A DNA stretch of 44,495 nt from an uncultured Gammaproteobacteria bacterium (GTDB lineage: Bacteria > Patescibacteriota > Patescibacteriia > UBA9934 > GWF2-40-263), in the NCBI GenBank assembly GCA_964359095.1, contig CAYHRJ010000002.1, positions 1-44,495 of the forward strand, in the 5' to 3' direction. Within the stretch, counting starts at the first letter, position 1, and the number at the start of each line of letters is the position of its first letter. The notes under the pieces are model-generated. The model was not told the DNA's origin and did not search any database. It saw only the letters and a program-made list of their open reading frames with translations. The translations under genes were made by a program, and so were the position numbers. Positions 3,540 through 23,311 of this stretch are shown here, one piece after another.

Positions 3540-3658
3540 CGATTGGTTAAAGTTATCCACTGATTTTGATTGACAAGACCAAAAAAGTCTGGTGAAATAA
3601 TTCTAGACACATGAACTCCCCGACACGTGTTGACGGGGATTTTATTATTTTCAAACGT

Positions 3659-4174
3659 ATGCAATATCCAGAACCACTCGTGCCTTCAACGATCATTGAA
3701 GGAAAGATTTATTTTGTTCGTGGTAAAAAAGTGATGGTAGATCGAGACCTTGCTTTGTTGTATGGGGTTACCACAGCAGCATTGAATCAGGCGGTAAGGC
3801 GCAATCAAGAAAGGTTTCCAAACGATTTTATGTTCAAATTATCGCTGGTTGAAGCGAAGAACTTGATATCACAATTTGTGATATCAAGTTCACACGGAGG
3901 TTTTCGTAAGGAACCCATCGTCTTTACTGAGCTTGGAGTCGCCATGCTTTCAACTGTTCTTCGCAGTCCACGTGCTATTGCTGTAAACATTCAGATTATG
4001 AGAACCTTCACTCGTCTGAGGGAGATGCTGACAGAAAATGACGATCTTCGCCGTAAGGTTGAGGTGATGGAGAAACAATATGACGAGCAGTTCAAGATGG
4101 TATTTGATGCGATTCGAAGGATGTTGCTAGAGGATGAGCATGGCAAAATTGAGATTGGATTTCGCTCAAATTAG
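3659..4174 (+). CDS. ORF6N-domain (KilA-N-related) DNA-binding protein
   Basis: IYFVRGKKVMVDRDLALLYGV..LNQAVRRNQERFPNDFMFKLS..FTELGVAMLSTVLRSPRAIAVNIQIMRTF matches the ORF6N domain pattern; the ATG at 3659 is preferred over 3611. Confidence 0.7.
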   Translation: MQYPEPLVPSTIIEGKIYFVRGKKVMVDRDLALLYGVTTAALNQAVRRNQERFPNDFMFKLSLVEAKNLISQFVISSSHGGFRKEPIVFTELGVAMLSTVLRSPRAIAVNIQIMRTFTRLREMLTENDDLRRKVEVMEKQYDEQFKMVFDAIRRMLLEDEHGKIEIGFRSN

Positions 4175-4249: not shown

Positions 4250-5962
4250 ATGTTGAAGAAAACACTTATTTTCGCGGTTGCTCTTGCAATCGCCATCTCT
4301 CCTTTGCTTCCGAGGGTCTTTGCGGACTCCGGCGAGTGGGGAACCCCGGTCGCCACAGCGGCTTGGGATTACGACTACTTCCGCGTTGAGCGCTTGTCGC
4401 TTGATTCGGACACTTCTGGCCCCTACACATTTAACGACGTTGTCTTCGTTGTGAAGACCGCTGAGTCTTGCGACGAGACATCCTTGTGCGATCAAGTCGA
4501 CCTGACCATCTTCAAAGATGGCGAGTCGCTTGAGATTGCCTCTGTGTCAGATGTTGTCACGGACGCATTTTCTCAGACCGCACAAGATGGTCGGTTCATC
4601 TACATGGTCCCATCGGATTCCGATGACTCATGGGGAACCATTTACGAATACGACACGGACAGTGGCACCATCGCCACCTTGTTCGATGTGGCGCGTGGTG
4701 ACAACAGTCTTTCATTTCTGTCATTTGCCACTGACGGCGACCGCATCTATACGACAACCTTGCAGTCTGATGAAGACACAGGCGACGTAGAAAGCGCGCT
4801 CTCGGTCTACGACTACGGTTCAGGCTACGAGCGTGAAGATTTTACCTATGCGCTCTCTGCACCGCTTCAAGAGATTGTGGATGTGCAAGATGGGCAGGCA
4901 CTTGTGAAGGCCACGTTTGACGGCGGCTATGAGCAGTTGTGGATTGTGAATCAAACCGCGCGTTCCGTTGAAGCGATTCCTGATACTTGGACGGAACTTG
5001 GTGCTGACATTGTCGGCGCGCATTATCTCTCTGACGGATCCATTGTGTACTTCCGTAACTTCCGTTTGTGGAGCTACATGCAGGGCGTTGATGAAACGCC
5101 TGAGGATGCAGGTGGCGCCTACCTCTCTTGGTTGGTAGATGTTGAGGACGCTGTCCAGATTGTCGGTGACCGCATGGCCTACATCGATGACGAAAACGGT
5201 TTGTATGTTGTTGATCTTGAAGGCGTCCACAAGTTGGGTGTTGCCATGGGCGGCATCTTCAATCTTACTGATGACACCATCTACTTCCAAAATGATGAGG
5301 ACGAGTACGTTGGTTATAACTTTGAAACTCTTGCCTGGGAGTCTCGAGCCTTTCATGTGACGGATAGCTACGAGGATATCGTTGTGGGTGTCGACGAAGA
5401 CGGCAACGTCTGGTACGAGAATACCACCAATGGTCGTCTGTTGAACGTAGGATTCGGCGAAGCGCCACTTCTCTCAGATCGTGAGCACGCCTACTGGCAG
5501 GGAACAGATGGTAACGTCTATGAAGTCACGTTCTCTCCACTGTTGGATCTCGTGCGTGATGAAGTCGAAGCGTTTAGCGCCTACGACTCAGAAGGCATCT
5601 ATCTCGTAAGTGGTGACCAGATGTGGCTCATCCCAAGCGAGCAGGTGTACTTCACTTGGTTTGATTCCTGGGATGAAGTTGTCGAGGTAAGCCAAGCCAC
5701 GATCAACGTGTACTTGGAAACTTCTGACTACGAGGGCGATCTCAAGTTTGCTCCTGGCACGCGCGTGAAAGCCGTAAGTTCAGAGCGAGTCTACGTGGTA
5801 GGATCAGATTATGATCTCCACTGGATCACTTCCGAGACCGTCGCCGATGAAATCTATGGCTCCGACTGGAACCAAGGTATCATCGAGGTAAATGACACGG
5901 CTCTGTGGAAGTACGGCAAAGGCGCAAACGTTGCATCGGGCGACGATGTGCGATCAATCTAA
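4250..5962 (+). CDS. Secreted acidic protein with recurring DGxxIY blade-like motifs (possible beta-propeller)
   Basis: Signal-peptide-like N-terminus MLKKTLIFAVALAIAISPLLPRVFA; repeated DG(R/D/S)xIY and GxxYxV motifs reminiscent of TolB/PD40 blades; 570-aa uninterrupted ORF. Confidence 0.6.
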   Translation: MLKKTLIFAVALAIAISPLLPRVFADSGEWGTPVATAAWDYDYFRVERLSLDSDTSGPYTFNDVVFVVKTAESCDETSLCDQVDLTIFKDGESLEIASVSDVVTDAFSQTAQDGRFIYMVPSDSDDSWGTIYEYDTDSGTIATLFDVARGDNSLSFLSFATDGDRIYTTTLQSDEDTGDVESALSVYDYGSGYEREDFTYALSAPLQEIVDVQDGQALVKATFDGGYEQLWIVNQTARSVEAIPDTWTELGADIVGAHYLSDGSIVYFRNFRLWSYMQGVDETPEDAGGAYLSWLVDVEDAVQIVGDRMAYIDDENGLYVVDLEGVHKLGVAMGGIFNLTDDTIYFQNDEDEYVGYNFETLAWESRAFHVTDSYEDIVVGVDEDGNVWYENTTNGRLLNVGFGEAPLLSDREHAYWQGTDGNVYEVTFSPLLDLVRDEVEAFSAYDSEGIYLVSGDQMWLIPSEQVYFTWFDSWDEVVEVSQATINVYLETSDYEGDLKFAPGTRVKAVSSERVYVVGSDYDLHWITSETVADEIYGSDWNQGIIEVNDTALWKYGKGANVASGDDVRSI

Positions 5963-5992
5963 CATTCAAACACAGCCTCTGGAGTTTCGGTC

Positions 5993-6013
5993 CCCCTCCT
6001 TTTCAAGGAGGGG
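5993..6013 (+). terminator. GC-rich hairpin downstream of the secreted-protein gene (no U tract)
   Basis: The 8-bp stem cccctcct/aggagggg with 5-nt loop is nested inside an outer 9-bp inverted repeat ctctggagt (about 5976) / actccagag (about 6041). Confidence 0.3.
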
Positions 6014-6036
6014 ATAGGGGTGGTTATCACTCTTGA

Positions 6037-6070
6037 CCAAGACTCCAGAGATCCGTGTTGGACATCCTGT
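6037..6070 (+). repeat. Upstream cassette motif, copy 1 (core agagatccgtgttggacatcc)
   Basis: The 21-bp identical core (6047-6067) recurs exactly 840 bp downstream; it ends 34 nt before the ATG at 6101. Confidence 0.85.
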
Positions 6071-6100
6071 CCCCACGTTCGTTCCGCCTATGAGTCCGTC

Positions 6101-6376
6101 ATGCTCGCTCTTCTTCTCAGTCTGGCCTGTTCTCCTCCTCCGGCGGCGGAGATGGTCAGCGTCACCAACGGCGTCTCAAGCGCCGAGGTGATCGACTACG
6201 GCAACGGCGTCTACTACCTCGATGCCAGTGGCATGCAGTTCGGCAACGCCTTGTCGGAGTTCATCAAGCAGCACCGCCGCACCCTCGAGGTCGTGGCGGT
6301 CGCTGGCGACGGGAGTTCTCGCTACGGCGACGCCGGCTACTTCATCGTCACCCGTCCTGTCATCGACTGCAACTAG
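6101..6376 (+). CDS. Small lipoprotein (91 aa), unknown function
   Basis: ATG 6101 gives MLALLLSLAC with a lipobox-like LSLAC; strongly GC-rich third codon positions; the track ORF starts at an upstream GTG at 6020. Confidence 0.5.
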   Translation: MLALLLSLACSPPPAAEMVSVTNGVSSAEVIDYGNGVYYLDASGMQFGNALSEFIKQHRRTLEVVAVAGDGSSRYGDAGYFIVTRPVIDCN

Positions 6377-6384
6377 GAGGAATC

Positions 6385-6699
6385 ATGTCTCGCATCAACT
6401 TCAGGACGGTCGGCTACAAGGTCGGCAGGGTTGTGAGGACGAGTCTGATGACCGTGTTCCTGCTGATCTTCGTGTCCGTGAGCCTTTTCATGGGCGTAAC
6501 GGCTGTCTATCTCGTGGTAGCGGCCTTCCATTCCATCGTCGCGATGAAACTGGTGATGGCGTTGTACGCGGCCGTCGGCTTCTTCATGACGGCGACCACT
6601 TCATACCTTTATGGGCTCCTCGTTCATGGGTTTTGGCAGGATCTTCGTCGTCCCAACATCGCTCCATCCGTTCCCACGTTTCCGTCGCGCAGCGACTGA
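6385..6699 (+). CDS. Small polytopic membrane protein (104 aa), unknown function
   Basis: AGGAGG sits 6 nt upstream of the ATG; three hydrophobic segments. Confidence 0.55.
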   Translation: MSRINFRTVGYKVGRVVRTSLMTVFLLIFVSVSLFMGVTAVYLVVAAFHSIVAMKLVMALYAAVGFFMTATTSYLYGLLVHGFWQDLRRPNIAPSVPTFPSRSD

Positions 6700-6705
6700 C
6701 TCGCG

Positions 6706-6799
6706 GTCCACGACCGCACGGCACGGCGTTCGCGAACGACGTGTCACGCGACCCCCGTCCGTCCGCAGATACGACATCTGTGAGACGGACGGGGCGTCT
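6706..6799 (+). repeat. Downstream cassette repeat, copy 1 (12-bp palindrome plus 14-bp-stem hairpin)
   Basis: Contains the perfect palindrome cgttcgcgaacg and the stem gacccccgtccgtc/gacggacggggcgtc (one bulge); a near-identical copy lies at 7282-7370; it starts 7 nt after the stop. Confidence 0.85.
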
Positions 6800-6876
6800 C
6801 ACAACTTTTTCCCACGACTAGAAAGGTCACATATGTGACAAAGTGGTTCAATCCGGCTTCTGTCGTTTTGCCACGA

Positions 6877-6910
6877 GCAAGACCGTAGAGATCCGTGTTG
6901 GACATCCCGT
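6877..6910 (+). repeat. Upstream cassette motif, copy 2
   Basis: Same 21-bp core at 6887-6907, ending 32 nt before the ATG at 6939. Confidence 0.85.
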
Positions 6911-6938
6911 ATTTCACAGAGTCCCTTCAGGAGATTCC

Positions 6939-7274
6939 ATGTCTTCCTACGTCGATCGTTTCTTCCGCCTGTACTGGATGCTCGCATTCGGCGCAATGCT
7001 CGGCATCGGACTCTACATGATGAGTCTCCCCGATACGGTCATGGTGACCGGTGTACGAGAGATCCACGTCGTCAACAGCGCGGGCGTCAACAATCTCGAC
7101 CGCCACTTCAACTTCGATGACGGCTGCGTCCTCGAGGTTGGGGGCAGGATCGAGCAAGCGGCGTTCACCGGCGACGTCCGACTGATGATGTACACCCCGC
7201 CGCGGGACTCTGCTTCCGGCAACTTCTGTCCATCGGGCACTCACTTCGTCGCCTTCGCCGACATGTACTTCTGA
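6939..7274 (+). CDS. Small N-terminally anchored protein (111 aa), unknown function
   Basis: AGGAG sits 6 nt upstream of the ATG at 6939; one TM segment (YWMLAFGAMLGIGLYMM); GC-rich codons. Confidence 0.5.
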   Translation: MSSYVDRFFRLYWMLAFGAMLGIGLYMMSLPDTVMVTGVREIHVVNSAGVNNLDRHFNFDDGCVLEVGGRIEQAAFTGDVRLMMYTPPRDSASGNFCPSGTHFVAFADMYF

Positions 7275-7281
7275 CCGTCAC

Positions 7282-7370
7282 GGTCCACGGCACGGCGTTC
7301 GCGAACGACGTATCACGCGACCCCCGTACGTCCTTGCAGACACGACATCTGTGAGACGGACGGGGCGTCT
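7282..7370 (+). repeat. Downstream cassette repeat, copy 2
   Basis: Aligns to 6706-6799 with an 8-nt deletion near the 5' end and a small indel plus a few substitutions near the hairpin loop; it starts 8 nt after the stop at 7274. Confidence 0.85.
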
Positions 7371-7452
7371 ATTCATCTCTCCGTTGCCTTTCGACACCTG
7401 CGAGCCTGGCTCTCAGATGTGGGAAGATAACCTCTTTGCTGTAGGAGCGTTC

Positions 7453-8097
7453 ATGTTACAGTTACTCTTAATCGCTTGTAGCACTCTCGATCTGGAAGAT
7501 TCCACTGTCGAGGATATCGAAACGGACATCTGTTCGGATCTCGGCTTGGGCGTTCCAGACGACACTGACTGGGACGAGGGAGAGAGCACCATCGACGTGG
7601 ATTGGATGACGGAGGAGCGCGCATACATCCGAGTCACTGCTGAGTGCCTCGTGATCCCACCCTTTCATATCTACACCACACAAGAGGAGGAGTTGCCCAT
7701 CACCTTCCTTACCTTCTCCCTCGCGAGCTACGACAACGGGGAGTGGATCGAGAAGTTCGGTAGCGAACTCACGGTCGAAAGCACACTGGGCGACCTGGGC
7801 TCCTACGAGTCCGTCGGCACCGCTTGTGAGCCGTTCTGCGGCCCGCACTGGGAGATGGACCTCACGGAGTACGGCCTCGTGGTCAGTCCGAAGGAGGACT
7901 TCTACATTGAGTTCGAGATTCCGGGTTTCAACGATCCGTCGGAAATCGACGAAGTGTGGGATGACGAGCGCGACAAGCTCGCCATCATGGTCTACGCCGG
8001 ACACAGTTGGACCGAGGAGACTTCTCCAGGTCAGTACGAGTTCGGGATGTACGAGGCCGGATCACTTCTGACCATCGACGTCGAGGTCATCGAATAG
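7453..8097 (+). CDS. Acidic lipoprotein (214 aa), unknown function
   Basis: ATG 7453 gives MLQLLLIACS (lipobox LIAC) preceded by TAGGAG; very Asp/Glu-rich mature part; the track ORF starts at an upstream GTG at 7351. Confidence 0.55.
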   Translation: MLQLLLIACSTLDLEDSTVEDIETDICSDLGLGVPDDTDWDEGESTIDVDWMTEERAYIRVTAECLVIPPFHIYTTQEEELPITFLTFSLASYDNGEWIEKFGSELTVESTLGDLGSYESVGTACEPFCGPHWEMDLTEYGLVVSPKEDFYIEFEIPGFNDPSEIDEVWDDERDKLAIMVYAGHSWTEETSPGQYEFGMYEAGSLLTIDVEVIE

Positions 8098-8173
8098 ATA
8101 TTTCGCGCGCCTGTACAACGACCCATCTCTCACGGTGGGTATTATTTTTAGGGACAGCCAGTTGCCAGAACCC

Positions 8174-8209
8174 GACGACGCTTTTTCTCATATGAGAACT
8201 TTTGTCGTC
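8174..8209. promoter_or_regulatory. Nested palindrome upstream of the DUF4258/DUF2283 pair (possible operator)
   Basis: Perfect 14-bp palindrome ttctcatatgagaa (8185-8198) flanked by gacgac/gtcgtc arms. Confidence 0.3.
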
Positions 8210-8337
8210 AGCTCTACATGAACAACTATGGGGACATCTTTTCGTATAGACGAAATTTTGTTCCCTCTTGTGAACCAGAAAATCCAATCTTGCTTTTTGT
8301 TGTCAGCTGCTTTATTCTTAAAAGAAGCAACGAACAT

Positions 8338-8592
8338 ATGGAACTTCGTTTCACAAAACACGCGGAGGATAAGTTCGAGATGTTGAAACGTCATGGAGTC
8401 GGTATCTTACGAGAAAAGGTCATCCAGACTCTGATCAACCCTGGTCACATTGATCGGTCACGTCTTCCACTTCTGATTGCGCAAAGTGTGCTGGATCGAG
8501 ATCATGTGCTGCGTGTTGTCTATCGCGTTGAAGGCCAAACAAAAGTTATCATCACTTTTTATCCAGGACGAAAAAATCAATATGAAACGTAA
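8338..8592 (+). CDS. DUF4258-like small protein (putative toxin component)
   Basis: 84 aa from ATG 8338; FTKHAEDKFEMLKRHGV resembles the H-A-x-x-R-M-x-x-R-G-I start of DUF4258; it overlaps the next gene by 11 nt. Confidence 0.5.
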   Translation: MELRFTKHAEDKFEMLKRHGVGILREKVIQTLINPGHIDRSRLPLLIAQSVLDRDHVLRVVYRVEGQTKVIITFYPGRKNQYET

Positions 8593-8803
8593 AATCAATA
8601 TCGCCTACGATCCAGATGCCGATGTGTTGAGCTGGGACGTAGCGTCACGTGCGCCTATTTCTCATGCAACAGAGATGGGGAATATCGTCGTCCACTTTTC
8701 AAAGAAAAATATGCCAGTGCTTATTGAAGTCTTAGAGGCATCAAAGATGGTAAAACAGTCAGCGCAAAAAATCGGATACAAGATGCAAGCAATTGCAGCA
8801 TAA
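8582..8803 (+). CDS. DUF2283-like small protein (putative antitoxin component)
   Basis: 73 aa from ATG 8582; the IAYDPDADVLSWDV motif is typical of DUF2283 (YDxEADxLY). Confidence 0.5.
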   Translation: MKRKINIAYDPDADVLSWDVASRAPISHATEMGNIVVHFSKKNMPVLIEVLEASKMVKQSAQKIGYKMQAIAA

Positions 8804-8834
8804 AAAATCGGTCCGATGTGGACCGATTTTTTTT
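8802..8834. terminator. Bidirectional intrinsic terminator between convergent genes
   Basis: 13-bp perfect stem aaaaaatcggtcc/ggaccgatttttt with loop gatgt; an A run on one side and a T run on the other. Confidence 0.8.
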
Positions 8835-9267
8835 ATTTCACGTACGTCTCTTCGAGCTTTCTCTTGAAACGTGTTTTCAGGTTGTTGAGGAAGCTGAGTT
8901 TGGCGCGGCGCACGCGAGCCGTTTTTACGAGTTCGATTTTGGCAATGAGTGGCGAGTGGACGGGATAGATTTTTTCTACACCGATGCCGTCGCTGACTTT
9001 GCGAATGGTGAGGGTGCGGGAAGGTCCGGCGCCTTTGACGCCCAGGATGATGCCTTCAAAAATTTGAACGCGCTCGCGGACTTCGCCTTTGGCTGAAACG
9101 TCCTTGATACGCTCGTGGAGTCGCACGGTTTGTCCGGCGCGCAGCTGATCGATTGTGAGCACGTTACTTGCCACGACCTTCTTGGCAGGCTCGGCAGGAG
9201 CTTCAACAGGCTCCACAGGAGTGACTGTTTCCTCTGCTGAGGCTGTTGTTTGTGTTTCTTCTTCCAT
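8833..9267 (-). CDS. rplS: 50S ribosomal protein L19 with an acidic N-terminal extension
   Basis: The core RVQIFEGIILGVKGAGPSRTLTIRK..GVEKIYPVHSPLIAKIELV is diagnostic of L19; 144 aa. Confidence 0.9.
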   Translation of the reverse strand: MEEETQTTASAEETVTPVEPVEAPAEPAKKVVASNVLTIDQLRAGQTVRLHERIKDVSAKGEVRERVQIFEGIILGVKGAGPSRTLTIRKVSDGIGVEKIYPVHSPLIAKIELVKTARVRRAKLSFLNNLKTRFKRKLEETYVK

Positions 9268-9301: not shown

Positions 9302-9886
9302 TCAAGTCACGTCACTCGCGAGTGACGTGACAAGAGAATCCATAATCCTCAGAACCTCTTCTACGGTATTTTCAAGATTCCCTTCTTGATTCACGACTCG
9401 ATATCGACAGGACGCTCCGTAATCACGCTCGTTTTTGATCGCCCGCATCCGTTCTTCAAGATTGACCGTCTTGCCTTGATCCCGAGCTGTCAGGTGCTTC
9501 ATGAGTGTTTCGTCTGATTCCGCATCGATGAAAATCACGATCGTTTCTGGATGTTCTTGTTGAATCGTCTTGGCGCCTTGGACATCGATGACAAACAAGA
9601 CGTCGTTGCCAGCTAGCAGGAGTTTTTCCACGTCTGATTTTTTGCTGCCATAGAGTGTGTCGTAGACGCGAGCAGATTCGAAAAGCTCACCAGCGTTTAG
9701 CAAGGAAGTGAGTGTTGCTTCATCGACAAAGTGATAGGAGATGCCGTCGGTTTCTCCAGGTCGGGATGGACGCGTTGTATAGGTCACGACTTTCTTGAGC
9801 TGTGGGCGTCGCTTGAGGAGTTCGTTCGCGATAGTTGTCTTGCCAACTCCACTTGGTCCGGTGATGATAAAGATTTTTCCTCTCAT
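9302..9886 (-). CDS. gmk: Guanylate kinase
   Basis: P-loop GPSGVGKTT, then TTRPSRPGE..G..YHFV, typical of Gmk; ATGA overlap with the upstream gene. Confidence 0.9.
   Translation of the reverse strand: MRGKIFIITGPSGVGKTTIANELLKRRPQLKKVVTYTTRPSRPGETDGISYHFVDEATLTSLLNAGELFESARVYDTLYGSKKSDVEKLLLAGNDVLFVIDVQGAKTIQQEHPETIVIFIDAESDETLMKHLTARDQGKTVNLEERMRAIKNERDYGASCRYRVVNQEGNLENTVEEVLRIMDSLVTSLASDVT
9306..9331. repeat. 26-bp perfect palindrome at the 3' end of the gmk coding sequence
   Basis: gtcacgtcactcg|cgagtgacgtgac read directly; it begins 2 nt inside the gmk stop codon. Confidence 0.9.
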
Positions 9887-10803
9887 ATTTTTTTCAGTGA
9901 GCGAAGCAGGCGTTCAAGCTCATCCGGCAGTCCTACCTCAAACGTTTTTTCTTTTCCGTTCATGAGTCTCACGGTCAGTCTGGTCGCATGAAGGAATAAT
10001 CGATCAAGTTCGATGGGACGAAATTTCATGCCTTTCACTTTGTAGATTTTGTCGCCTACGACCGGATAGCCTATGGCTTGGAAGTGCACGCGAATTTGAT
10101 GCGTGCGGCCTGTGAGAATTTTTACGCGAACATACGTCGTGGTGGGAAGTCGATCAAGTACATCATACTCTGTGTGTGCTTCTTTACCTTCTTGCGATTC
10201 AGGACGAGCGACCATACGGCCTTTGGCTTTGGAACGCGCGACCTTGAGTGTGATGATGTCGTGATCTTTTGGGAGCGAGCCGTATACTAGGGCGAGGTAT
10301 TCTTTTGTGAGCGTTCGTTCCTGGAACTGTCGTTTCAAATGTTCAAACGCTGTTTGGGTTTTGGCGATCACCATGAGACCAGAGACATCTTTGTCCAGCC
10401 GATGCACAATGCCTGGACGTTTTGGATCGTCACCAACCTCTGCAACCTCAGGGAAGGATTCAAGAAGAGCATCCACGACCGTTGCTCGCATTTCGTCTTT
10501 GAATGCTTCGTGGACAAGCAAGCCCGCAGGCTTATTGATGACCAATAGATCATCATCCTGATAGACGATTTCGAGCAGGGGAGCGACCTCGGTTTTTGTG
10601 TGCGTTGCTATTTCCGACGCTGGATAAAAAATCACATCGCCTGTTTCCAAGCGTCTATTGGATTTTGTGACATTTTTATTGACCAGCACACTTCCTGCTT
10701 CGATGAGCTTCTGAATCTGTGAGCGTGTCGATGTCATGTTCGACGTCAAAAAATGATCGAGTCGCTTGCCTTCTGCTTCCGCTGTTACATGAATTTCTGG
10801 CAT
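9883..10803 (-). CDS. rluD: RluA/RluD-family pseudouridine synthase with an S4 domain
   Basis: ATG at 10803 (MPEIHV); S4-like N-terminus and the catalytic HRLDKDVSGLMV motif; the track ORF extension to 10926 runs through a tRNA gene. Confidence 0.85.
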   Translation of the reverse strand: MPEIHVTAEAEGKRLDHFLTSNMTSTRSQIQKLIEAGSVLVNKNVTKSNRRLETGDVIFYPASEIATHTKTEVAPLLEIVYQDDDLLVINKPAGLLVHEAFKDEMRATVVDALLESFPEVAEVGDDPKRPGIVHRLDKDVSGLMVIAKTQTAFEHLKRQFQERTLTKEYLALVYGSLPKDHDIITLKVARSKAKGRMVARPESQEGKEAHTEYDVLDRLPTTTYVRVKILTGRTHQIRVHFQAIGYPVVGDKIYKVKGMKFRPIELDRLFLHATRLTVRLMNGKEKTFEVGLPDELERLLRSLKKI

Positions 10804-11553: not shown

Positions 11554-11629
11554 GGGCGCGTAGCTCAACGGTTAGAGCACCGAGCTTATACCTCGGTGGT
11601 TCTTGGTTCGAATCCAAGCGCGCCTACCA
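11554..11629 (+). tRNA. tRNA-Ile with a genomically encoded UAU anticodon, CCA encoded
   Basis: Manual cloverleaf: acceptor GGGCGCG/CGCGCCT (G1-U72), D stem GCTC/GAGC, anticodon stem CCGAG/CTCGG with loop CTTATAC, T arm CTTGG-TTCGAAT-CCAAG, discriminator A, CCA. Confidence 0.85.
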
Positions 11630-11816: not shown

Positions 11817-13373
11817 ATGACAACACCTATCAAAATTTTTCTGTCAGCACTTGGACTCGGAATTATATTCGATTATTTATTTTTTGAGATGATGCGCGTT
11901 GGAATCAACTTGCCTTTAGCGCAGGTTCTTTTTTTGGCCGTGAGTTTTGGCTTGGCCAAGTGGACCAAGCACAAGCTGCCACGCCGTGCCTGGATCGCGG
12001 CTGGATTTGCCCTGGCCTACAGCGCTGTGTTCGCCGTGTGGACGGGCAGCTTCGGACTCACGATTGCGTTTTTGGGATTTTTTATTTCGAACCTTTTGTT
12101 CATTGCCTTTTCTCTGGGACATCACGGACAGTGGCGGCATCCATTTGATATTCTTGCAACCGGAACGATTGAACTTGGATGGAAGCTCTTGTCGCGCTTG
12201 TCAATTTTTCGCGAGCTACGTTCCAAGCGCTTCACTCTGCGTCAGAATGCGATTGTGAAGGGCGTCATCATCTTGCTACCGATCCTTCTTTTGTTTATCG
12301 CACTGTTTGCAAGTGCTGATCTTCTGTTCCGATCGTTCACCGATGAGGTTTTTTCAACGCTCAACGTGATCTTTGAGCCTGAGTACTGGCTGGGTCACGT
12401 TGTGTACGTCGGATTTTGGAGTGTGCTGTTCTCCACGATTTTTGCCGCAGCGTTTTGGCAACGTTTTACCCACTCAGCACTGGAGGAAATCAAACCCAGG
12501 TTCATTCTTGAGAGTCAGGTGATCGTCGGCGGCATTGCCGTTTTGTTCGCTGCGTTTCTCTTGGTTCAAGGCTATGCGTTGTTTGGTGGCGAGGCTGCGT
12601 TCGCTCAAATGACGGGCGTGACGTATGCAGAGTACGCCCGGCAGGGATTTTTTCAGCTCGTCATCTCTGCGATCCTGGTGATTGGAATCGTACTGACGCT
12701 CAGACTCATGCACAGTGAGCGCACACATAAACTCCTCACTGCGCTCCACGCGATTCTGATTGGAGAGACATTGCTCGTGCTTTTCTCTGCGTTCACTCGT
12801 CTCAATCTCTACGTTGAGGCCTACGGCTACACACCAGATCGACTGTTTGGTTATTTTGTGATGGACACGCTTGGGATTCTGCTTGTCTTGTTGTTTGTGA
12901 GTGTTGTACGCCAATCTTCGCAGTCCAGTTTGATGCGCCAGGGGTTGATCGTCTTGGGAATCTCGGGACTGTTGTTTGCTTGGACGCCATCAGATGAGCT
13001 CGCGGTGTTGCTCAACATAAAAAGACACGAGGTGTGTCTTGAAACTTTGAGCAACTGCAAAGTGGACGCGTTGTTGTTCTTGTCCCTGAGTGAGGAGGCG
13101 TATCCAAGGATCAAGACGTTTTTGGATGGAGCGTCAGAGGGTGAGGTTCAGAATTTTTATCCGACACAGGTCGCCGATACCGTGTGTGAAAGACTCTATC
13201 AGCGAGAGATGCTCAATTCTTTTTATCTGGGTAGTCTGTTCGTTCCCGATAGTTTTGCTGGGCCGGAATGGCAGGAATGGAATTGGGCACGAGCAAGACT
13301 TCCAGGTCGCTATCTTGATGATCCAACGTTGCCAGCGTGGCTAGAAATTACAGGCGAGGAAGATTGTCCTTGA
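11817..13373 (+). CDS. Large polytopic membrane protein (DUF4153/DUF4173-like, uncertain)
   Basis: 518 aa from ATG 11817; about 10-12 hydrophobic helices followed by a soluble Cys-containing tail. Confidence 0.55.
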   Translation: MTTPIKIFLSALGLGIIFDYLFFEMMRVGINLPLAQVLFLAVSFGLAKWTKHKLPRRAWIAAGFALAYSAVFAVWTGSFGLTIAFLGFFISNLLFIAFSLGHHGQWRHPFDILATGTIELGWKLLSRLSIFRELRSKRFTLRQNAIVKGVIILLPILLLFIALFASADLLFRSFTDEVFSTLNVIFEPEYWLGHVVYVGFWSVLFSTIFAAAFWQRFTHSALEEIKPRFILESQVIVGGIAVLFAAFLLVQGYALFGGEAAFAQMTGVTYAEYARQGFFQLVISAILVIGIVLTLRLMHSERTHKLLTALHAILIGETLLVLFSAFTRLNLYVEAYGYTPDRLFGYFVMDTLGILLVLLFVSVVRQSSQSSLMRQGLIVLGISGLLFAWTPSDELAVLLNIKRHEVCLETLSNCKVDALLFLSLSEEAYPRIKTFLDGASEGEVQNFYPTQVADTVCERLYQREMLNSFYLGSLFVPDSFAGPEWQEWNWARARLPGRYLDDPTLPAWLEITGEEDCP

Positions 13374-14706
13374 GCCAACTGAGCGCGGCTTCGCGGGTCA
13401 TGAGCCTGCCGTCGAGTTGGAGATCACGAATGCCGTCCAGCCAGAGACGAACCTTTGGGCCAGCAGGGATCCCAGCGGAGAGCACATCGTTACCAGAGAG
13501 CAGGGGAGCGATGGTTTCGTCGTGATCCACTAGCCATCGATCTTCCATTTCTTTCCGTCGTCGACGTGCTACGTCGGCGATTTTTTTTTGATCAAGTAAA
13601 TCTAGACAGCGAACAAGCGCGGCTCCACGACCGTTCATGAACCGACGTTCGAATTCAGATCCTGGAAGACCTTGCACTTCGTGGACAGACAGGTTTGTCT
13701 GGAGCGCTTTGGTGAGCCACAAGACATCTCCTGAATCGATTCGGATCTCTGAGTCTTTGGGGAGACGATCTAGTCCTGAAAGATGAATAGCGTTGCGTAC
13801 CTGTTCCTCACTTAGTCCGCGTATGAGAAGCGCAACGACGACCAGAAGTTCGTGCGGCTGTGTGCGTGTGAGCGGTTCGAGATAATCTTTTTGAGAGATG
13901 GATTCTTCAATACCGAGAAACAATTCTTTCAGAGTGCCTGAGTTGCGCAGGGCATCGATCGCTCTGTGAGGGTTGCGTGAGAGAGCCTTGGCTAATTCTT
14001 CGCCTACGATTTCGCGAGGAACGACGAATTCAAGCTTTCCCGTCGCTTCTCTCATCCGATTGATTTTAGGTATGAGCATTTTGATTGCGTCCATGGTCTG
14101 ATCCTCAATCGTAAACCCAAGCTCGGCAGCAAATCGGATGGCGCGGAGCATGCGTGTAAAGTCTTCGCGAAATCGATCTTCCGGATTTCCAACCGCGCGG
14201 ATGATCTTGTTTGCAAGGTCGGTTTGACCTTGGAATGGATCAACAAGTTGACGATCTCGGACATCAAACGCGATGGCATTCATCGTGAAGTCGCGCCGTG
14301 CCAAGTCGTCTTCGATCGGGAGGGAAGGATCTGATTGCACGTCAAAATCTTTGTAGCCGCCCAGGGATCCTTCTGCGACGGCTTCTGTACGTGGAAGAGC
14401 CAGGTCGATAAAGGGAATGCGATCAGACGAGAATCCACGTGGCATGAATTTGAACACACCAAAATGTTGTCCGACGAGATTCACTTCGCCTTGCGTACTA
14501 AACCATGTCTGAACATCCTCGGCGGATAATCCACGAATCACAAAATCAAAATCCATCTCCGCCATTTTTCTCCTAAGCAGTCTGTCGCGCACTGCACCAC
14601 CGACGAGATACAACTGAGCGTCTGAATGTGTTTGAAGAAACAGATCGACAAAGGCAAGTGCAGGTTCTTGTGCGATGAGTTTTTTAAGAACGTCCTCCTT
14701 CACCAT
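13348..14706 (-). CDS. CCA-adding enzyme / poly(A) polymerase family nucleotidyltransferase
   Basis: ATG at 14706 (MVKEDV); the LVGGAVRDRLL head-domain motif, then DFTMNA and RAIRFAAELGF motifs; the upstream 94 aa of the track ORF overlap the GT4 gene and an intergenic hairpin. Confidence 0.8.
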   Translation of the reverse strand: MVKEDVLKKLIAQEPALAFVDLFLQTHSDAQLYLVGGAVRDRLLRRKMAEMDFDFVIRGLSAEDVQTWFSTQGEVNLVGQHFGVFKFMPRGFSSDRIPFIDLALPRTEAVAEGSLGGYKDFDVQSDPSLPIEDDLARRDFTMNAIAFDVRDRQLVDPFQGQTDLANKIIRAVGNPEDRFREDFTRMLRAIRFAAELGFTIEDQTMDAIKMLIPKINRMREATGKLEFVVPREIVGEELAKALSRNPHRAIDALRNSGTLKELFLGIEESISQKDYLEPLTRTQPHELLVVVALLIRGLSEEQVRNAIHLSGLDRLPKDSEIRIDSGDVLWLTKALQTNLSVHEVQGLPGSEFERRFMNGRGAALVRCLDLLDQKKIADVARRRRKEMEDRWLVDHDETIAPLLSGNDVLSAGIPAGPKVRLWLDGIRDLQLDGRLMTREAALSWLKDNLPRL

Positions 14707-20053: not shown

Positions 20054-20779
20054 TTAGTTGGTTGTTTTGACCCCAATCCTCCCCGTGTTATCAATCCGAG
20101 AGAGCAAAATTTTTTCCGTTGAAAAATATTCGTCTACAGCGCGTTTTGCTCCAGCCCAATGTCCATAATCATCTATGATGAGCACTCCACTCATACACAG
20201 AAGTGGGAAGAGATGTGTCAGTTCATGCGCGGTTGATTCATACCAATCTGTGTCTAGACGCAAGAGGGCGATTTCTTTTGGTATCGTTGATGGGATCGTT
20301 TCTTTCACATCACCCATGATGTATTGGATATGCTCTTTGGGATAGTGAGTCGAAGCGAGATTGTTTTTTACCTCCTCGATGGAGGCATAGGCCCAGTCAT
20401 TATGATCGTCTTTTTTGTTCTGAATCCACTTTGTGAACGCATTTCTTTTTGGATCAGATACGTGAAAATCATTTTTTGTCGGTTCCGTCATGCCTTGATA
20501 TGTGTCATACAGATAGATTGTTCTTGTTGTGTCACCGAAGTGTTCAAGTGCGAGAGCGCAGAGCATCGCACTTCCTCCTTTCCAAACGCCACACTCTACA
20601 ATGTCTCCGGGAATAGCGTTTTTGTAGATGTATTCGACACTTTTAAACAGAGTGTACATTCGTTCGACAGAAGTCATCGTAAATTTACTACATTGATGAT
20701 AGAGATCAACAAAAACTGGATCCGAGCGTTCCAGATCCATCGGGATTTCCTTTTTTTGAAAACCAAAGATGTTTTTCAT
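20054..20779 (-). CDS. TylF/MycF-family O-methyltransferase
   Basis: GDIVECGVWKGGSAM, LYDTYQGM and LRLDTDWYEST..LIIDDYGHWAGAKRAVDEY match the macrocin O-methyltransferase family signature. Confidence 0.8.
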   Translation of the reverse strand: MKNIFGFQKKEIPMDLERSDPVFVDLYHQCSKFTMTSVERMYTLFKSVEYIYKNAIPGDIVECGVWKGGSAMLCALALEHFGDTTRTIYLYDTYQGMTEPTKNDFHVSDPKRNAFTKWIQNKKDDHNDWAYASIEEVKNNLASTHYPKEHIQYIMGDVKETIPSTIPKEIALLRLDTDWYESTAHELTHLFPLLCMSGVLIIDDYGHWAGAKRAVDEYFSTEKILLSRIDNTGRIGVKTTN

Positions 20780-20785
20780 AAATTT

Positions 20786-21463
20786 TTACGATGCCGATTT
20801 TGTCGCAATGATGAAGTATCCACCGTGTGCATTTCGCAGATTGGGTGATGACAAAACAATGGGGGTTCGATCAAGAAGGATGAGTACATCTATGAGAGGA
20901 AGAAACAAATAGAGAATCAACCGAATTGGCTCTGGCATTGCTTTTATGAATAATTTCAAGTGATCCGCCAGTACCGTAAAGTATCTTCCCATGATGGAAA
21001 AAACTTCAATTTGAAAATTTCTTTTTGATAACTCTTGTTTCCATTTCGTTTCTGTCCACCTTTGATAATCATGTGGATCGGAATGGACAAGGTAAAGAAA
21101 TGGGACAGAGATAATGAACCTTCCGCCTATTTTCAAAACCCGTGTGCATTCATCCAGACCAGCTTCAATTTTTTCTACATGCTCAAATAGTTCGCAAGCA
21201 CAGATGACATCGATGCTTTCAATTTCTATTGAGTCCATTTGTGCAACATCTAGAACAATGTCTGGATAATGTGCTGGATTGATATCAGCAAAAATCCATT
21301 TTTGAACCTGCGTTTTTGGTTTTACGAATCGTCCTCGGCCTCTTCCGCCTATATCTAAAACAACTCCAGAAAAAAGTGATCGATGTTTATCGAGATATTG
21401 ATCCAGGAGCTTTCGTCGATAGCTTTCGCAAAAATAATAGCGAATTTGCTTAAATATGTTCAT
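20786..21463 (-). CDS. Class I SAM-dependent methyltransferase
   Basis: VLDIGGRGRG motif I and the CELFEHV post-motif; 14-nt overlap with the upstream gene. Confidence 0.7.
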   Translation of the reverse strand: MNIFKQIRYYFCESYRRKLLDQYLDKHRSLFSGVVLDIGGRGRGRFVKPKTQVQKWIFADINPAHYPDIVLDVAQMDSIEIESIDVICACELFEHVEKIEAGLDECTRVLKIGGRFIISVPFLYLVHSDPHDYQRWTETKWKQELSKRNFQIEVFSIMGRYFTVLADHLKLFIKAMPEPIRLILYLFLPLIDVLILLDRTPIVLSSPNLRNAHGGYFIIATKSAS

Positions 21464-22247
21464 AACACACTTGGGATGCTTCTTCTTTTTTTGAAACAGC
21501 GATCATATAAGACATGGATCGTGAGTCGAGTGTTTTATTGGGTTCAAACAAATTTATCCCTAGATAAATGTGCAAGATGTTGATGACGTATTTGAAGAGA
21601 GGTATGTTTTTTCCGAAACAGGGAAAGGCTCGTTTGTAAAGAAGAGAGAAAAGCAGCGGATGGGTTTCAATCAGATGACAATTTCCAAAAGATCCTTTCA
21701 TGATTTCCGTAAATTCGTTTTGAAAAAATTCATGGGCATGATTTAGATCTATCGGATATTCTGTGAATCTAATCGGAGTTCCAATGCTCACAAAAGCATT
21801 TTTTTTTGTCACACGCTGGATTTCAGCTAACATTTTTTTTGGGTAGAGAACATGTTCAATCACATCGGATGAGACAACGATATCAAAATGGTTTTCAGGA
21901 AATTTTATTTGATACACATCACCACAAATAAAATGAGCTTCCGGGATTTGTTTTCTCGCGATCATAATGGCCTCTTCGGACGAATCGATCCCGAACAGTT
22001 CAATGTTTTGACCGAAGGTTTTTTTCAGTAAATACAATAATACACCATCACCACAACCAACATCCAACAGTTTTAAACCCCCATCCCCCCCGGGTTTTTT
22101 TTTAAGATAATCTTTAACGACATTGACATGTTGTGTATACCTTGAAAAAACAAACGAATTGAACCGAAACACATTTTTTTCGATTTGTCGATAATGGTAA
22201 TCTGAGCCCATTGTTTCGTATTTTGTAAATTTTTTTTCTTTTTCCAT
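21450..22247 (-). CDS. Class I SAM-dependent methyltransferase
   Basis: LLDVGCGDGVL motif I, FGIDSSEEAI motif II, the acidic motif SSDVIEHV. Confidence 0.75.
   Translation of the reverse strand: MEKEKKFTKYETMGSDYHYRQIEKNVFRFNSFVFSRYTQHVNVVKDYLKKKPGGDGGLKLLDVGCGDGVLLYLLKKTFGQNIELFGIDSSEEAIMIARKQIPEAHFICGDVYQIKFPENHFDIVVSSDVIEHVLYPKKMLAEIQRVTKKNAFVSIGTPIRFTEYPIDLNHAHEFFQNEFTEIMKGSFGNCHLIETHPLLFSLLYKRAFPCFGKNIPLFKYVINILHIYLGINLFEPNKTLDSRSMSYMIAVSKKEEASQVCYEHI
22078..22103. repeat. Compound homopolymer tract C5-AT-C7-G3-T9 inside the methyltransferase gene
   Basis: Read directly; on the coding strand it encodes KKKPGGDGG just upstream of SAM motif I. Confidence 0.9.
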
Positions 22248-22264
22248 AATTCACCAAAACTCTT

Positions 22265-23311
22265 TTATCTAGTCAATAGATTGATAGCGAAACGAACTTT
22301 GTTTTTCATTTTCCATATGAGGATTTGACTTTTTAGTCGTGTCAATCCGATCAGATGACATTGTTTGGGCATATATCTTTTTTTCTGTGTCTCCCGCCAG
22401 ACCTGTTCAATAAACGAAAGATAATCTTTAGCTGCGGTTCGTATATCATATTTTGGGAGGTGCGATTGATAGAGATTTAGATTGTTTGCGACAACGTCGA
22501 TTTTTTTCAATGCTTCTTCTTGTGTGGCAAACAACTCTCCTCCTGTTTGAACAAGTTCTTGGTGGCCACCATCGTTTAGGGCAACGGCTGGGAGTCCGCA
22601 AGAGAGGGCTTCGACGAGTGCATTTGAACAAGGGTCTTTTTGGGAGGCTGTGATAAAGATATCATGTTCTTTCAAAAGTTTTGCCAGTTCAATCGAACCA
22701 ACAGCAGGAATTGTGTGTATGTGTTTGAATGGAATATTCGTGTTTCCAACAAAAGTCATCTCGTATTTGTTGAAATTCAGTTTTTCGTCCAAATATTGGT
22801 AGAGATCGAATCCTTTGCGTGGGTTTGATGACCAACTGACTACGATGAGTTTTGTTTTCGTACGATTTGCATTTGGGTCGCGTCCTTTTTGGTTAAAGAT
22901 CTCCATGTCCGGTGCATTATAAATAACTGTTTCATATACTGAGGAGATCCCGAACTGTTTTTTGTTTTCGTTTTGGCACCATTTTGATTGGAAGATGATT
23001 CCGTCGCACAGGAGCTGATTAAACATTGCGATGACTTGATCAACCTCTTTATCCGTATTTCGAATGGTTGAAATGGGTCCATTTAAGCGATAAATGAAAA
23101 GCTTTTGAGGGAATTGTTTTTTGATTTTGAAAGCCTGATCAAACAAGTATTCGGCTCCAAACGGGTAACTATTGAACAGAATCGCATCAGCCTCATCTGT
23201 GCGCTCTGTGTAGACACCTTGTCGCTGCCACTCTTTTTTGAGTGCATTTAAAAATTGATTTCCACCACCCCAAGGCTCCTCTCGCAGATTGTGGAGGATA
23301 GACATTTTCAT
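22265..23311 (-). CDS. Glycosyltransferase family 4
   Basis: ATG at 23311 (MKMSILHNL); C-terminal DPCSNALVEALSCGLPAVALNDGGHQELV GT-B motif; ATGA overlap with the upstream gene; the Arg-rich track extension is rejected. Confidence 0.75.
   Translation of the reverse strand: MKMSILHNLREEPWGGGNQFLNALKKEWQRQGVYTERTDEADAILFNSYPFGAEYLFDQAFKIKKQFPQKLFIYRLNGPISTIRNTDKEVDQVIAMFNQLLCDGIIFQSKWCQNENKKQFGISSVYETVIYNAPDMEIFNQKGRDPNANRTKTKLIVVSWSSNPRKGFDLYQYLDEKLNFNKYEMTFVGNTNIPFKHIHTIPAVGSIELAKLLKEHDIFITASQKDPCSNALVEALSCGLPAVALNDGGHQELVQTGGELFATQEEALKKIDVVANNLNLYQSHLPKYDIRTAAKDYLSFIEQVWRETQKKRYMPKQCHLIGLTRLKSQILIWKMKNKVRFAINLLTR

Follow-up and report, generated by a model that had tools for sequence, protein, structure and literature searches.

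The 44,495-nt window analysed here (assembly GCA_964359095.1, contig CAYHRJ010000002.1, forward strand) carries at 6015-8140 an island of four small genes, which is one instance of a lineage-specific hypervariable cassette array in the slot between the gene of a 570-aa protein (p570) and rplS of Candidatus Uhrbacteria. The host is a groundwater member of the Patescibacteria, or Candidate Phyla Radiation (CPR). An earlier note on the same DNA, made from its letters only, had regarded the island as a GC-rich, horizontally acquired set of small envelope genes, arranged in cassettes with shared 5' and 3' structured elements. This cassette organisation was supported across lineages, and the finding is larger than the one then proposed: the array is clade-wide, varies actively and has structured connectors that form a class of their own. 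The cassettes vary between species and between co-occurring strains, and the 5' hairpin modules recognised by a covariance model (R1, see below) occur only in arrays of this slot.

Variation of the slot among lineages and strains

When p570, the neighbour of the array, was used as the query against species-representative genomes, 12 syntenic loci were recovered. Their taxon label is Candidatus Uhrbacteria in seven cases and Patescibacteria group bacterium in two, and the remaining three have another label or none. The protein was present in all 12, as well as in L027 and L028, at 51-86% amino acid identity (L-numbers denote related loci or contigs and X-numbers groundwater runs, eight of which were used as assembled contigs). 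The order uvrA - one variable gene - p570 - slot with 0-3 cassettes - (small two-gene toxin-antitoxin-like module) - rplS - gmk - rluD was kept in the window, L027, L028 and 11 of the 12 genome loci; the twelfth, L042, stops at p570.

Between none and three cassettes were found in the slot of 15 related lineages. The slot is empty in L036, L037 and L041, where the stop codon of p570 is followed by just a bidirectional terminator and rplS, and L039 has a single module after p570 with no gene behind it. One to three cassettes are present in the window, L027, L028, L033, L034, L035, L038, L040, L043 and L044, and the 1.07-kb contig fragment L025 holds two modules and at least two cassettes. Content and order differ among 12 lineages, and also between two haplotypes from the same wells at Hainich, which differ by one cassette. 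For example, the cassette of F1 (the island proteins are called F1 to F4 in their order in the window) is the first in the window and the last in L028, in both cases with its own leader. The search for further copies of the repeats that had been suggested found the connectors in 12 lineages, around exchangeable cassettes.

At the level of strains, L001, L002, L003 and L005 match the window with 99.9% identity as far as 7370 and no further, 7370 being the last base of an invariant 26-nt block in the second 3' connector. Past this base the haplotypes are unrelated for about 1.1 kb, and identity resumes at 8452 within the DUF4258-like gene, at 96%. In the L001-type haplotype F4 is replaced by a gene for a 29-aa transmembrane (TM) peptide and a gene for a 242-aa secreted protein; L004 and L006 have the haplotype of the window. 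Contigs of the eight groundwater runs showed both haplotypes and further junction variants. A contig of X6 departs directly past 6064 (...GTTGGACA), a contig of X7 fuses another small gene to the ribosome-binding site at 6370, and two more contigs have other short junctions. The breakpoints 6064 and 6370, like 7370, lie at connector edges. Moreover, run X6 has a loose end at 7370, and in X3 and X4 the same junction sequence was found as a loose end at 6808, with no contig coverage of 7417-8325.

The 5' junction modules

The 21-nt core AGAGATCCGTGTTGGACATCC, noted earlier upstream of two of the genes, was present at exactly two sites, 6047 and 6887, which are 840 bp apart; no further match with three or fewer mismatches was found in the window, and none was expected in shuffled sequences. 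The 34-bp motif in which it had been placed is real and conserved, but it is merely the 3' half of a larger hairpin, the copies at 6047-6067 and 6887-6907 forming the 3' halves of the first and second junction modules (Table 1). Similarly, the architecture described for two units is indeed shared by them, but the fourth gene also has an upstream hairpin, of a second type. This type-2 hairpin is used by cassette 3 of the window and by the second cassette of L035 (10198-10266; same lower stem, other tip, z = -4.3). Its mismatch-punctuated lower stem is conserved and its tip is variable, and it was not detected by R1.

R1 was built from an alignment of 20 module sequences. It recovered 25 copies at 50-67 bits, all of them within arrays and on the coding strand, including three outside the training set, one of which is the first module of the window (58.2 bits); the latter was also called as an inverted repeat and by folding. 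Elsewhere, namely in the other ~250 kb of Uhrbacteria flanks and in two class 1 integrons, R1 matched nothing. The modules are 51-65 nt long, or about 100 nt with an insert, and all 22 that were folded, from 12 lineages, share a two-helix architecture. The lower stem of 7-9 bp, GTCAAAC(AC) or GTTCAAC with (GT)GTTGGAC, is followed by 3-5 unpaired nucleotides on each side and then by an upper stem of 12-15 bp differing from copy to copy. The lower stem and the internal loop are conserved in sequence, and the upper stem changes compensatorily. In the 20-sequence alignment 82.9% of the cells were paired, compared with 72.6% in shuffles and 33-51% with slid partners, and double changes were seen in 12 pairs (11 of 13 in the upper helix). 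G:T cells outnumbered A:C cells 49 to 9 in the upper helix, and in the 20 modules there were 64 G:T cells on the sense strand versus 17 on the other. The leaders are cassette-specific from the base directly after GTTGGAN, and the sequence 5' of them is position-specific.

A high-copy repeat of about 40 nt, ccccctccttttcaaggaggggataggggtggtta, is inserted in the loop of the first module. It showed 10-20x excess depth and many unrelated flanks in the eight groundwater runs. The same insertion in the first hairpin loop was found in L043 (~9795-9835), with further copies near the arrays of L035 (~9735-9770) and L027 (~5839-5855) and one outside the array in L044 (12141-12157).

The 3' connectors

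The downstream repeat reported earlier was confirmed: its copies at 6717-6799 and 7286-7370 are 95-97% identical and contain both the palindrome cgttcgcgaacg and a 14-bp-stem hairpin, with zero matches expected in shuffles. In multi-cassette arrays each cassette but the last is followed by a conserved 3' connector. This begins with the stop codon, as a rule TGA but TAG in one case in L034, after which there is mostly a CCGCGGTC(C/A)ACGACC-like sequence and then a hairpin, GACCCCCGTCCGTC - loop - GACGGACGGGGCGTCTCAC. Thirteen copies from eight lineages have identical stems in this hairpin, though dS (synonymous divergence) of the host genes is about 2, and the 26-nt block GTGAGACGGACGGGGCGTCTCACAAC is invariant in nine of the 13 copies. 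The terminal cassette has a homologous terminator with a T-run instead; in relatives this end is a related hairpin with GTGTTTCTTTT. In copy 1 of the window the only stem with a T-run behind it is an alternative one of 9 bp (6779-6803; ACTTTTT), and copy 2 has no T-run.

The probability that these repeats are chance similarities or a functionless local tandem duplication is negligible. There are just two copies of each in the window, as such a reading would have it, but zero matches were expected in shuffles, the units between the repeats are unrelated genes, and the connectors recur with compensatory changes in 12 lineages. The covariation, the R1 matches and the invariant stems refute it, and the earlier concern that the repeats might be local and at chance level does not hold.

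Two small connector inserts (5985-6029 and 6717-6748) do behave as dispersed repeats. A dispersal of the type known for repetitive extragenic palindromic (REP) elements or miniature inverted-repeat transposable elements was not seen for the R1 modules, which are confined to arrays. A palindromic unit of about 32 nt (core cgttcgcgaacg; 6717-6748 and 7286-7317) was also seen in further contigs, where its flanks are unrelated. The tip of the first module of L027 (5750-5775) consists of it, and the 3' connectors of L028 and L034 do not have it; it resembles a very small mobile palindrome with hairpins as its landing sites. In long junctions the stretch from the 3' hairpin to the module holds additional perfect palindromes (GTCACATATGTGAC; CACATGTGATCCGATCGGATCACATG; AATTATGTCCGATCGGACAnAATT; window 6826-6839; L027 5196-5209; L044 5710-5723 and 6159-6172; L028 ~7250-7275), which short junctions lack. 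These may be protein-binding sites, and one of them (L027 5108-5184) gave the single marginal match of the attC model described below.

The cassette genes

The properties previously described for the four proteins were borne out: lipobox-like LSLAC and LIAC sequences are present, F2 is hydrophobic at residues 13-70, and F4 has an isoelectric point of 4.05 and 52 Asp and Glu residues. As had been remarked, no family could be recognised, and searches of Pfam and PHROGs with the four proteins gave none. F1 has 47 homologs, which are small lipoproteins or anchored proteins with the motif YGNGVYYF...FGNALS, all named ones being from Patescibacteria. The structure prediction suggested for these proteins was partly successful. 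The F1 model is confident (predicted local distance difference test, pLDDT, 84; beta-beta-alpha-beta-beta) with no significant match in PDB (best E 0.17), and that of F4, made without an alignment, is too poor to use (pLDDT 54.7). The exact F3 protein was found on six contigs from the Hainich groundwater wells H41 and H43, and homologs with 64% and 36% amino acid identity in L033 and L025, with a ratio of nonsynonymous to synonymous divergence (dN/dS) of 0.30. F4 has only seven homologs, all from Uhrbacteria/Patescibacteria (dN/dS 0.15).

In general the cassette genes are under purifying selection (dN/dS 0.15-0.57) and are real genes; the possibility, raised earlier, that the open reading frames (ORFs) would prove unconserved in relatives was not borne out. 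They diverge far more than the flanks, e.g., F2 is 45% identical between the window and L034 and p570 84%. Several families recur in different arrays: F1 in the window, L027 (twice), L028 and L035; F2 in the window, L033 and L034; F3 in the window, L025 and L033; a 142-aa cytoplasmic protein in L028, L034 and L044; the 242-aa secreted protein in L001, L043 and, distantly, L038; and a 33-46-aa protein in L027 (twice) and L044. TM peptides and a PF09414 RNA ligase (L027) are further members of the pool. All four window genes encode envelope proteins, yet the slot itself is not an envelope system. The coherent small envelope system that had been imagined is contradicted, because the gene content of the slot is interchangeable and in relatives includes the RNA ligase and other cytoplasmic proteins.

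Within cassettes, a joint (C)AAC-TAGGAGGnnTC-ATG, with a stop codon overlapping the Shine-Dalgarno (SD) sequence, was observed in the window (6371-6387), L001 (1796-1811), L040 (~9900-9916) and the X7/X8 contig ending at 6370. It connects F1 to F2, the 29-aa to the 242-aa protein, a 29-aa protein to F2, and a TM peptide to a 242-like protein, and it appears to be a second, intra-cassette connector where modules reshuffle. The signal-peptide DNA ATGCTCGCTCTTCT is common to the unrelated genes of F1 (6101-6114) and of the 242-aa protein (L001 1809-1822, L040 ~9915).

Outside the slot, no R1 module was found at the loci of F4 homologs (L077-L081), and no module at the distant F1 homologs L030 and L031, which lie in ordinary operons. 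In L077 (Ca. Uhrbacteria RIFOXYB12_FULL_58_10; 9860-10663 and 12744-13637), the F4 homolog has a TTGACA-17-TATTAT promoter-like site of its own and is surrounded by small unknown genes, at 2 kb from a PF00239 resolvase.

Composition and origin of the cassettes

The GC content of the island is 57.9%, versus 48.9% for the whole window. At third codon positions (GC3) the four island ORFs have values of 0.83, 0.75, 0.80 and 0.75, in order, and the 36 other ORFs of the window a mean of 0.50 (standard deviation 0.077, range 0.33-0.65), which places the island ORFs 3.2-4.2 standard deviations above the others and upholds the initial description of a GC-rich island. GC skew is negative (-0.06 to -0.08) at 6001-7500 despite the + strand genes, and positive in the flanks.

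The foreign composition on which the idea of horizontal acquisition had been based was also seen in relatives, in which the arrays have a GC of 0.57-0.62 irrespective of a host GC of 0.49-0.57. The exception is L038, with an array of 0.45 in a host of 0.43 and cassette genes that are host-like. The cassettes are drawn from a common GC-rich pool of about 58-60% GC. The nearest F4 homolog, at 77% identity, is a stand-alone gene in the 58%-GC Uhrbacteria genome mentioned above, and dS of F1 between the window and L028 is 0.84, with 2.0-2.2 for flanking genes, although the strong GC3 bias could contribute to the low value. Taken together, the GC of the arrays, the stand-alone F4 homolog and the low dS of F1 support the view that the cassettes were exchanged horizontally within the clade, probably from GC-richer members.

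Foreign GC and self-contained gene units would also be expected of a phage or plasmid remnant next to p570, made of moron-type units or of an early operon with RNase III sites, in which the repeats would be promoters and terminators. The ORF6N (KilA-N-like) gene 2 kb upstream and the RNA ligase cassette of L027 could be cited in its favour. However, none of the cassette proteins has a PHROG match, phage structural, replication and integration genes are absent from all loci, the connector patterns are absent from or at chance level in 2.9 million viral contigs, and a slot used in at least 12 lineages with different content is unexpected for one decaying insertion; we regard this origin as very improbable. 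The island is like phage morons in having autonomous small gene units of deviating GC with flanking expression signals in a conserved backbone, and differs from them in the lack of a prophage context and of a recognisable junction promoter, and in the identical connectors of all units.

The pattern searches were as follows. A 25-nt 5' pattern had no match in viral and genome collections and five loci in metagenomes, of which L023 and L026 are chance matches within unrelated coding genes. In viral contigs, matches of the palindrome 17-mer span just 17-19 nt and are due to chance, and degenerate 16-mers gave 32 single matches; these 32 loci, selected for containing the motif, scored at most 21.6 bits with R1, versus at least 50 for true modules. 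Nothing besides a chance snoRNA match was found on the island in Rfam at gathering or E<=1. A diversity-generating retroelement was also considered and rejected; there is no reverse transcriptase in the window, and the repeats are intergenic and non-coding.

Possible mechanism of expression and exchange

The reading that we favour, with about evenly balanced confidence, is that the connectors would serve two ends, standard punctuation of the mRNA and portable homology for the exchange of cassettes. Each cassette consists of the 51-65-nt hairpin module, a specific leader with an SD sequence and 1-3 small ORFs and, if non-terminal, the 3' connector. Transcription may enter the array by read-through from p570, because a promoter would not fit in front of the first module, which starts 2-12 nt past the p570 stop codon in the different lineages (2 nt in the window), or in short junctions, which leave 10-30 nt between hairpins. 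The motif itself was considered as a promoter and rejected, because in L001 the SD abuts the motif (TTGGA 15 nt from the ATG), the TA is not conserved, and a scan of 5800-8400 found no sigma-70-like site on the + strand. The connectors would act on the sense-strand RNA, the 5' hairpin as a processing or stability element and the 3' hairpin as a 3'-end protector or leaky terminator. The structure expected of an RNase III-type site is present, i.e., a hairpin on the sense strand that spans about two helical turns and has an internal loop, located between p570 and the cassettes.

At the DNA level, the invariant connectors would give any cassette portable homology, and cassettes could be replaced, added and lost by ordinary homologous recombination with DNA of related strains, with no dedicated recombinase. 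Judging from its sequence, the one mapped swap bears the signature of double-crossover homologous recombination and not of a site-specific joint, because it ends at the last base of the 26-nt block and inside the neighbouring gene. We infer an RNA function from structure, and a general mechanism from this one swap.

Both halves of this reading have counterparts among known systems. Intercistronic hairpins serve as RNase III sites in the early region of phage T7, and REP elements stabilise polycistronic mRNAs. The modules resemble them in being sense-strand and intercistronic, with a lower stem, an internal loop and an upper stem of ~21-25 bp in which G:U is tolerated, as do the 3' hairpins in following stop codons; to our knowledge, however, such elements do not delimit exchangeable cassettes or stay conserved while genes swap. 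In pilE/pilS of Neisseria and in lipoprotein families of Mycoplasma, conserved flanks allow the recombinational replacement of variable surface-protein genes. The conserved non-coding flanks, and the signal-peptide DNA ATGCTCGCTCTTCT shared by two unrelated cassettes, are alike in the array, whereas its cargo consists of unrelated families, cytoplasmic enzymes included, and not of variants of one antigen, and silent donor loci are not known.

Several observations weigh against the favoured reading. About five alignment columns, which related copies have inherited, account for the G:T asymmetry, and minimum free energies show no clear strand preference; with RNA parameters the top strand folds better in 14 of 22 modules, and with DNA parameters in 11 of 22. 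No RNA runs containing the island sequence were found. The base of the module keeps 5'-AAC / GTT-3' (GTT in 24 of 25 modules, AAC in about 20 of 25; GTTGGAC fits GTTRRRY), and its layout is that of an attC-like R box, spacer, L box and variable tip. ATCTGGGTTGGA replaces ATCCGTGTTGGA in every copy of L033, L034, L035 and L043, one such module having a compensating change in the opposite arm, and a lone module survives in the cassette-less slot of L039. The conserved base, the lone module and the array-wide variant are traits that would be expected of a recombination site recognised by a protein. Furthermore, homologous recombination leaves unexplained the origin of unrelated genes between identical connectors, the lone module in an empty slot, and the concerted change of the core across an array.

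Such traits would fit a new site-specific cassette platform, in which the modules would be attC-like sites of a different class, recombining as folded single strands or as duplex, with excision and insertion at the GTG|TTGGA core by a recombinase encoded elsewhere, a source of mobility that the earlier note had also considered. In addition to the attC-like layout with its conserved AAC/GTT base, unpaired spacer and co-varying terminal stem (definition in PMC5027507), this is favoured by the leaders being cassette-specific right past GTTGGAN, by the F1 cassette being first in one array and last in another, by the X6 contig departing after 6064, by the single module left in L039, by the distribution of the array-wide variant, which does not follow the p570 tree, and by the restriction of the modules to one locus. 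However, no tyrosine recombinase gene was found in the window or the 16 related loci and no serine recombinase by Pfam in the window, the sole mapped polymorphism breaks after the 3' hairpin and inside the neighbouring gene and not in a module, breakpoints could not be placed to the nucleotide because the core 13 nt are the same in all copies, and the sense-strand G:T bias fits RNA equally well. This explanation is less probable than the favoured one but a serious rival; if it holds, an integron-like, non-canonical and hitherto unrecognised kind of cassette capture, with folded hairpins 5' of the cassettes recombined by a trans-encoded recombinase, would operate in the CPR.

Relationship to integrons

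The presence of a tyrosine recombinase or integron integrase on the contig had been suggested as a check, and the outcome was negative: a phmmer search of the window and the 16 related loci with IntI1 (E<=10; ORFs of at least 120 aa), a query confirmed to be 100% identical to plasmid copies, found nothing. By Pfam, no serine recombinase was found among window ORFs of at least 100 aa, and no recombinase, transposase or phage gene among the likely genes of this size in the 44.5-kb window.

An attC site is defined by an R box with an AAC/GTT helix base, an unpaired spacer, an L box and a variable terminal structure (PMC5027507), and measures 57-141 bp. In architecture, all 22 folded modules are attC-like, with an R box, spacer, second helix and variable tip. 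In placement they are not, since in 11 of 11 cassette-holding arrays every cassette, even the first, has a module in front of it and the last one is closed by a terminator with no module, which is the opposite of attC placement. The strand bias is reversed as well; per site, the sense strand of the modules has about 3.2 G:T pairs and the opposite strand 0.85, versus 0.39 (top strand) and 1.24 (bottom strand) in true attC (PMC5027507). A second covariance model, R2, was built from seven recombination-proficient attC sites (PMC9668308 Data S9/S10). Of four class 1 attC sites kept out of its training it recovered three (16.8-23.2 bits), but at E<=10 it recovered not one of the 25 modules, nor did it when the filters were switched off for the window; R2 is a small proxy and not the model of IntegronFinder, so this failure lowers but does not end the claim of an integron. 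Within the arrays R2 gave one marginal match, at 5108-5184 of L027 (14.2 bits, E 0.85), to an inverted repeat other than the modules, AACAATTATGTCCGA..TCGGACACAATTGTT.

It could also be supposed that the array is a remnant of a canonical integron, that is, a cluster of attC sites that has no integron-integrase (CALIN), in which the modules are attC sites, the integrase has been lost or lies elsewhere, and insertion occurred at a secondary site. Many copies of the R''/R' boxes fit RYYYAAC / GTTRRRY, the module size of 51-65 nt, the toxin-antitoxin-like neighbour and the dominance of small unknown ORFs would suit, and CALINs without a nearby intI are common (PMC4889954). However, the attC-trained R2 finds none of the modules, these stand 5' of every cassette with none after the last, the G:T pairs are on the wrong strand, intI is absent from all 17 loci, and very small genomes have been reported to be without integrons in surveys (PMC4889954), all of which makes such a remnant improbable. 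By the tests applied, the array is integron-like in outline and not a member of the integron family. A full-text literature search found no paper linking integrons or attC with Uhrbacteria, and no title or abstract described cassette arrays in Patescibacteria.

Compared with sedentary chromosomal integrons (Vibrio VCR arrays) and CALINs, the array is alike in its tandem short, mostly uncharacterised ORFs, uniform and array-specific imperfect palindromes, AAC/GTT base, unpaired spacer, variable tip, strain-variable content, toxin-antitoxin-like module nearby and cassette composition unlike that of the host. It differs in the absence of an integrase nearby, in the hairpins lying 5' of the cassettes with none after the last, in the extra invariant 3' hairpin and the fixed sequence at the stop codon, in the sense-strand G:T bias, in modules that an attC model does not recognise, and in its ultra-small CPR host. 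The pdif modules of Acinetobacter are XerC/D-dependent, with short conserved sites and enzymes encoded elsewhere. They likewise consist of gene modules bounded by short conserved sites, but pdif sites are 28-bp duplexes in inverted pairs on plasmids; no dif-like (11-6-11) site was evident on inspection of the junctions, for which no pattern search was made.

Significance

At least one CPR lineage keeps a dedicated place in which small genes, mostly for surface lipoproteins and membrane peptides, plus an RNA ligase, are swapped between strains and species via standardised structured connectors. The genomes of CPR/Patescibacteria are tiny and streamlined, and integrons have been reported lacking in very small genomes (PMC4889954). 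If the connectors were just RNA punctuation and homology arms, they would represent a simple, enzyme-free route to integron-like plasticity; if the modules were recombination sites, these would form a new class. Should a recombinase acting in trans be involved, the array would be the first dedicated gene-cassette platform in ultra-small genomes, and cassettes resembling complete mRNA units would bear on how cassettes are made. In practice, R1 and the invariant 26-mer GTGAGACGGACGGGGCGTCTCACAAC provide a handle for tracking accessory-gene flow in groundwater episymbionts and let surface proteins under diversifying exchange be picked out.

Features of the window

The features of the array and its surroundings are listed in Table 1.

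Table 1. Coordinates of the cassette array and its anchors in the window
Feature	Position	Strand	Details and evidence
p570 gene, conserved secreted acidic 570-aa protein, left anchor of slot	4250..5962	+	synteny; weak DUF5050 match only
First junction module	5965..6063	+	lower stem TTCAAACAC / GTGTTGGAC, internal loop, upper stem CTCTGGAGT..GGTC / GACC..ACTCCAGAG
High-copy ~40-nt repeat ccccctccttttcaaggaggggataggggtggtta in loop of first module	5985..6029	+	depth excess and unrelated flanks
Cassette 1: leader, F1, coupling joint caacTAGgaggaatcATG, F2	6064..6699	+	homologs, contig breakpoints
F1, 91-aa lipoprotein	6101-6376	+	
F2, 104-aa multi-TM protein	6385-6699	+	homologs in L033, L034
3' connector of cassette 1	6700..6845	+	CGCGGTCCACGACC (6701-6716), palindromic insert, invariant hairpin, palindrome
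Palindromic insert with cgttcgcgaacg, cassette 1 connector	6717-6748	+	dispersed elsewhere with unrelated flanks
Invariant hairpin GACCCCCGTCCGTC..GACGGACGGGGCGTCTCAC, cassette 1 connector	6750-6803	+	stem comparison among lineages
Palindrome GTCACATATGTGAC, cassette 1 connector	6826-6839	+	perfect palindrome
Second junction module	6846..6903	+	lower stem GTTCAAT / GTTGGAC, internal loop, upper stem; R1 63.5 bits, fold, covariation
Cassette 2: leader and F3, 111-aa N-anchored protein (6939-7274)	6904..7274	+	homologs
3' connector of cassette 2	7275..7370	+	palindromic insert 7286-7317, invariant hairpin 7319-7370; end is left strain breakpoint
Type-2 junction hairpin before cassette 3	7383..7431	+	GTTG.CTTTC.ACA.CTG - tip - CAG.TGT.GGAAG.TAAC
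Cassette 3: F4, 214-aa very acidic lipoprotein	7453..8097	+	7 homologs
Terminator-like hairpin and T-run closing array (window haplotype)	8121..8150	+	
DUF4258-like / DUF2283 two-gene module, toxin-antitoxin-like, between array and rplS	8338..8803	+	Pfam: DUF2283 3.7e-7, DUF4258 weak
rplS, right anchor of slot	8833..9267	-	synteny across relatives

Variation was also observed on both sides of the slot. The 5' part of the DUF4258-like/DUF2283 module is replaced in the alternative haplotype, L027 retains just a 16-aa remnant of its first gene, and L040 and L043 have a different two-gene module there. The gene between uvrA and p570 is variable too, being the ORF6N (KilA-N-like) gene in the window (3611-4174) and that of an unrelated 139-aa protein in L028 (4521-4940). 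Outside the island the window consists of housekeeping genes and a large glycosyltransferase/methyltransferase/O-antigen-ligase cluster. A tRNA-Ile gene with anticodon TAT (UAU) lies at 11554-11629, a low-GC stretch (0.36-0.39) at 20500-23000 within the glycosyltransferase/methyltransferase cluster, and a GC-rich stretch (0.58) at 33500-34500 in the Wzy_C (O-antigen ligase-like) gene.

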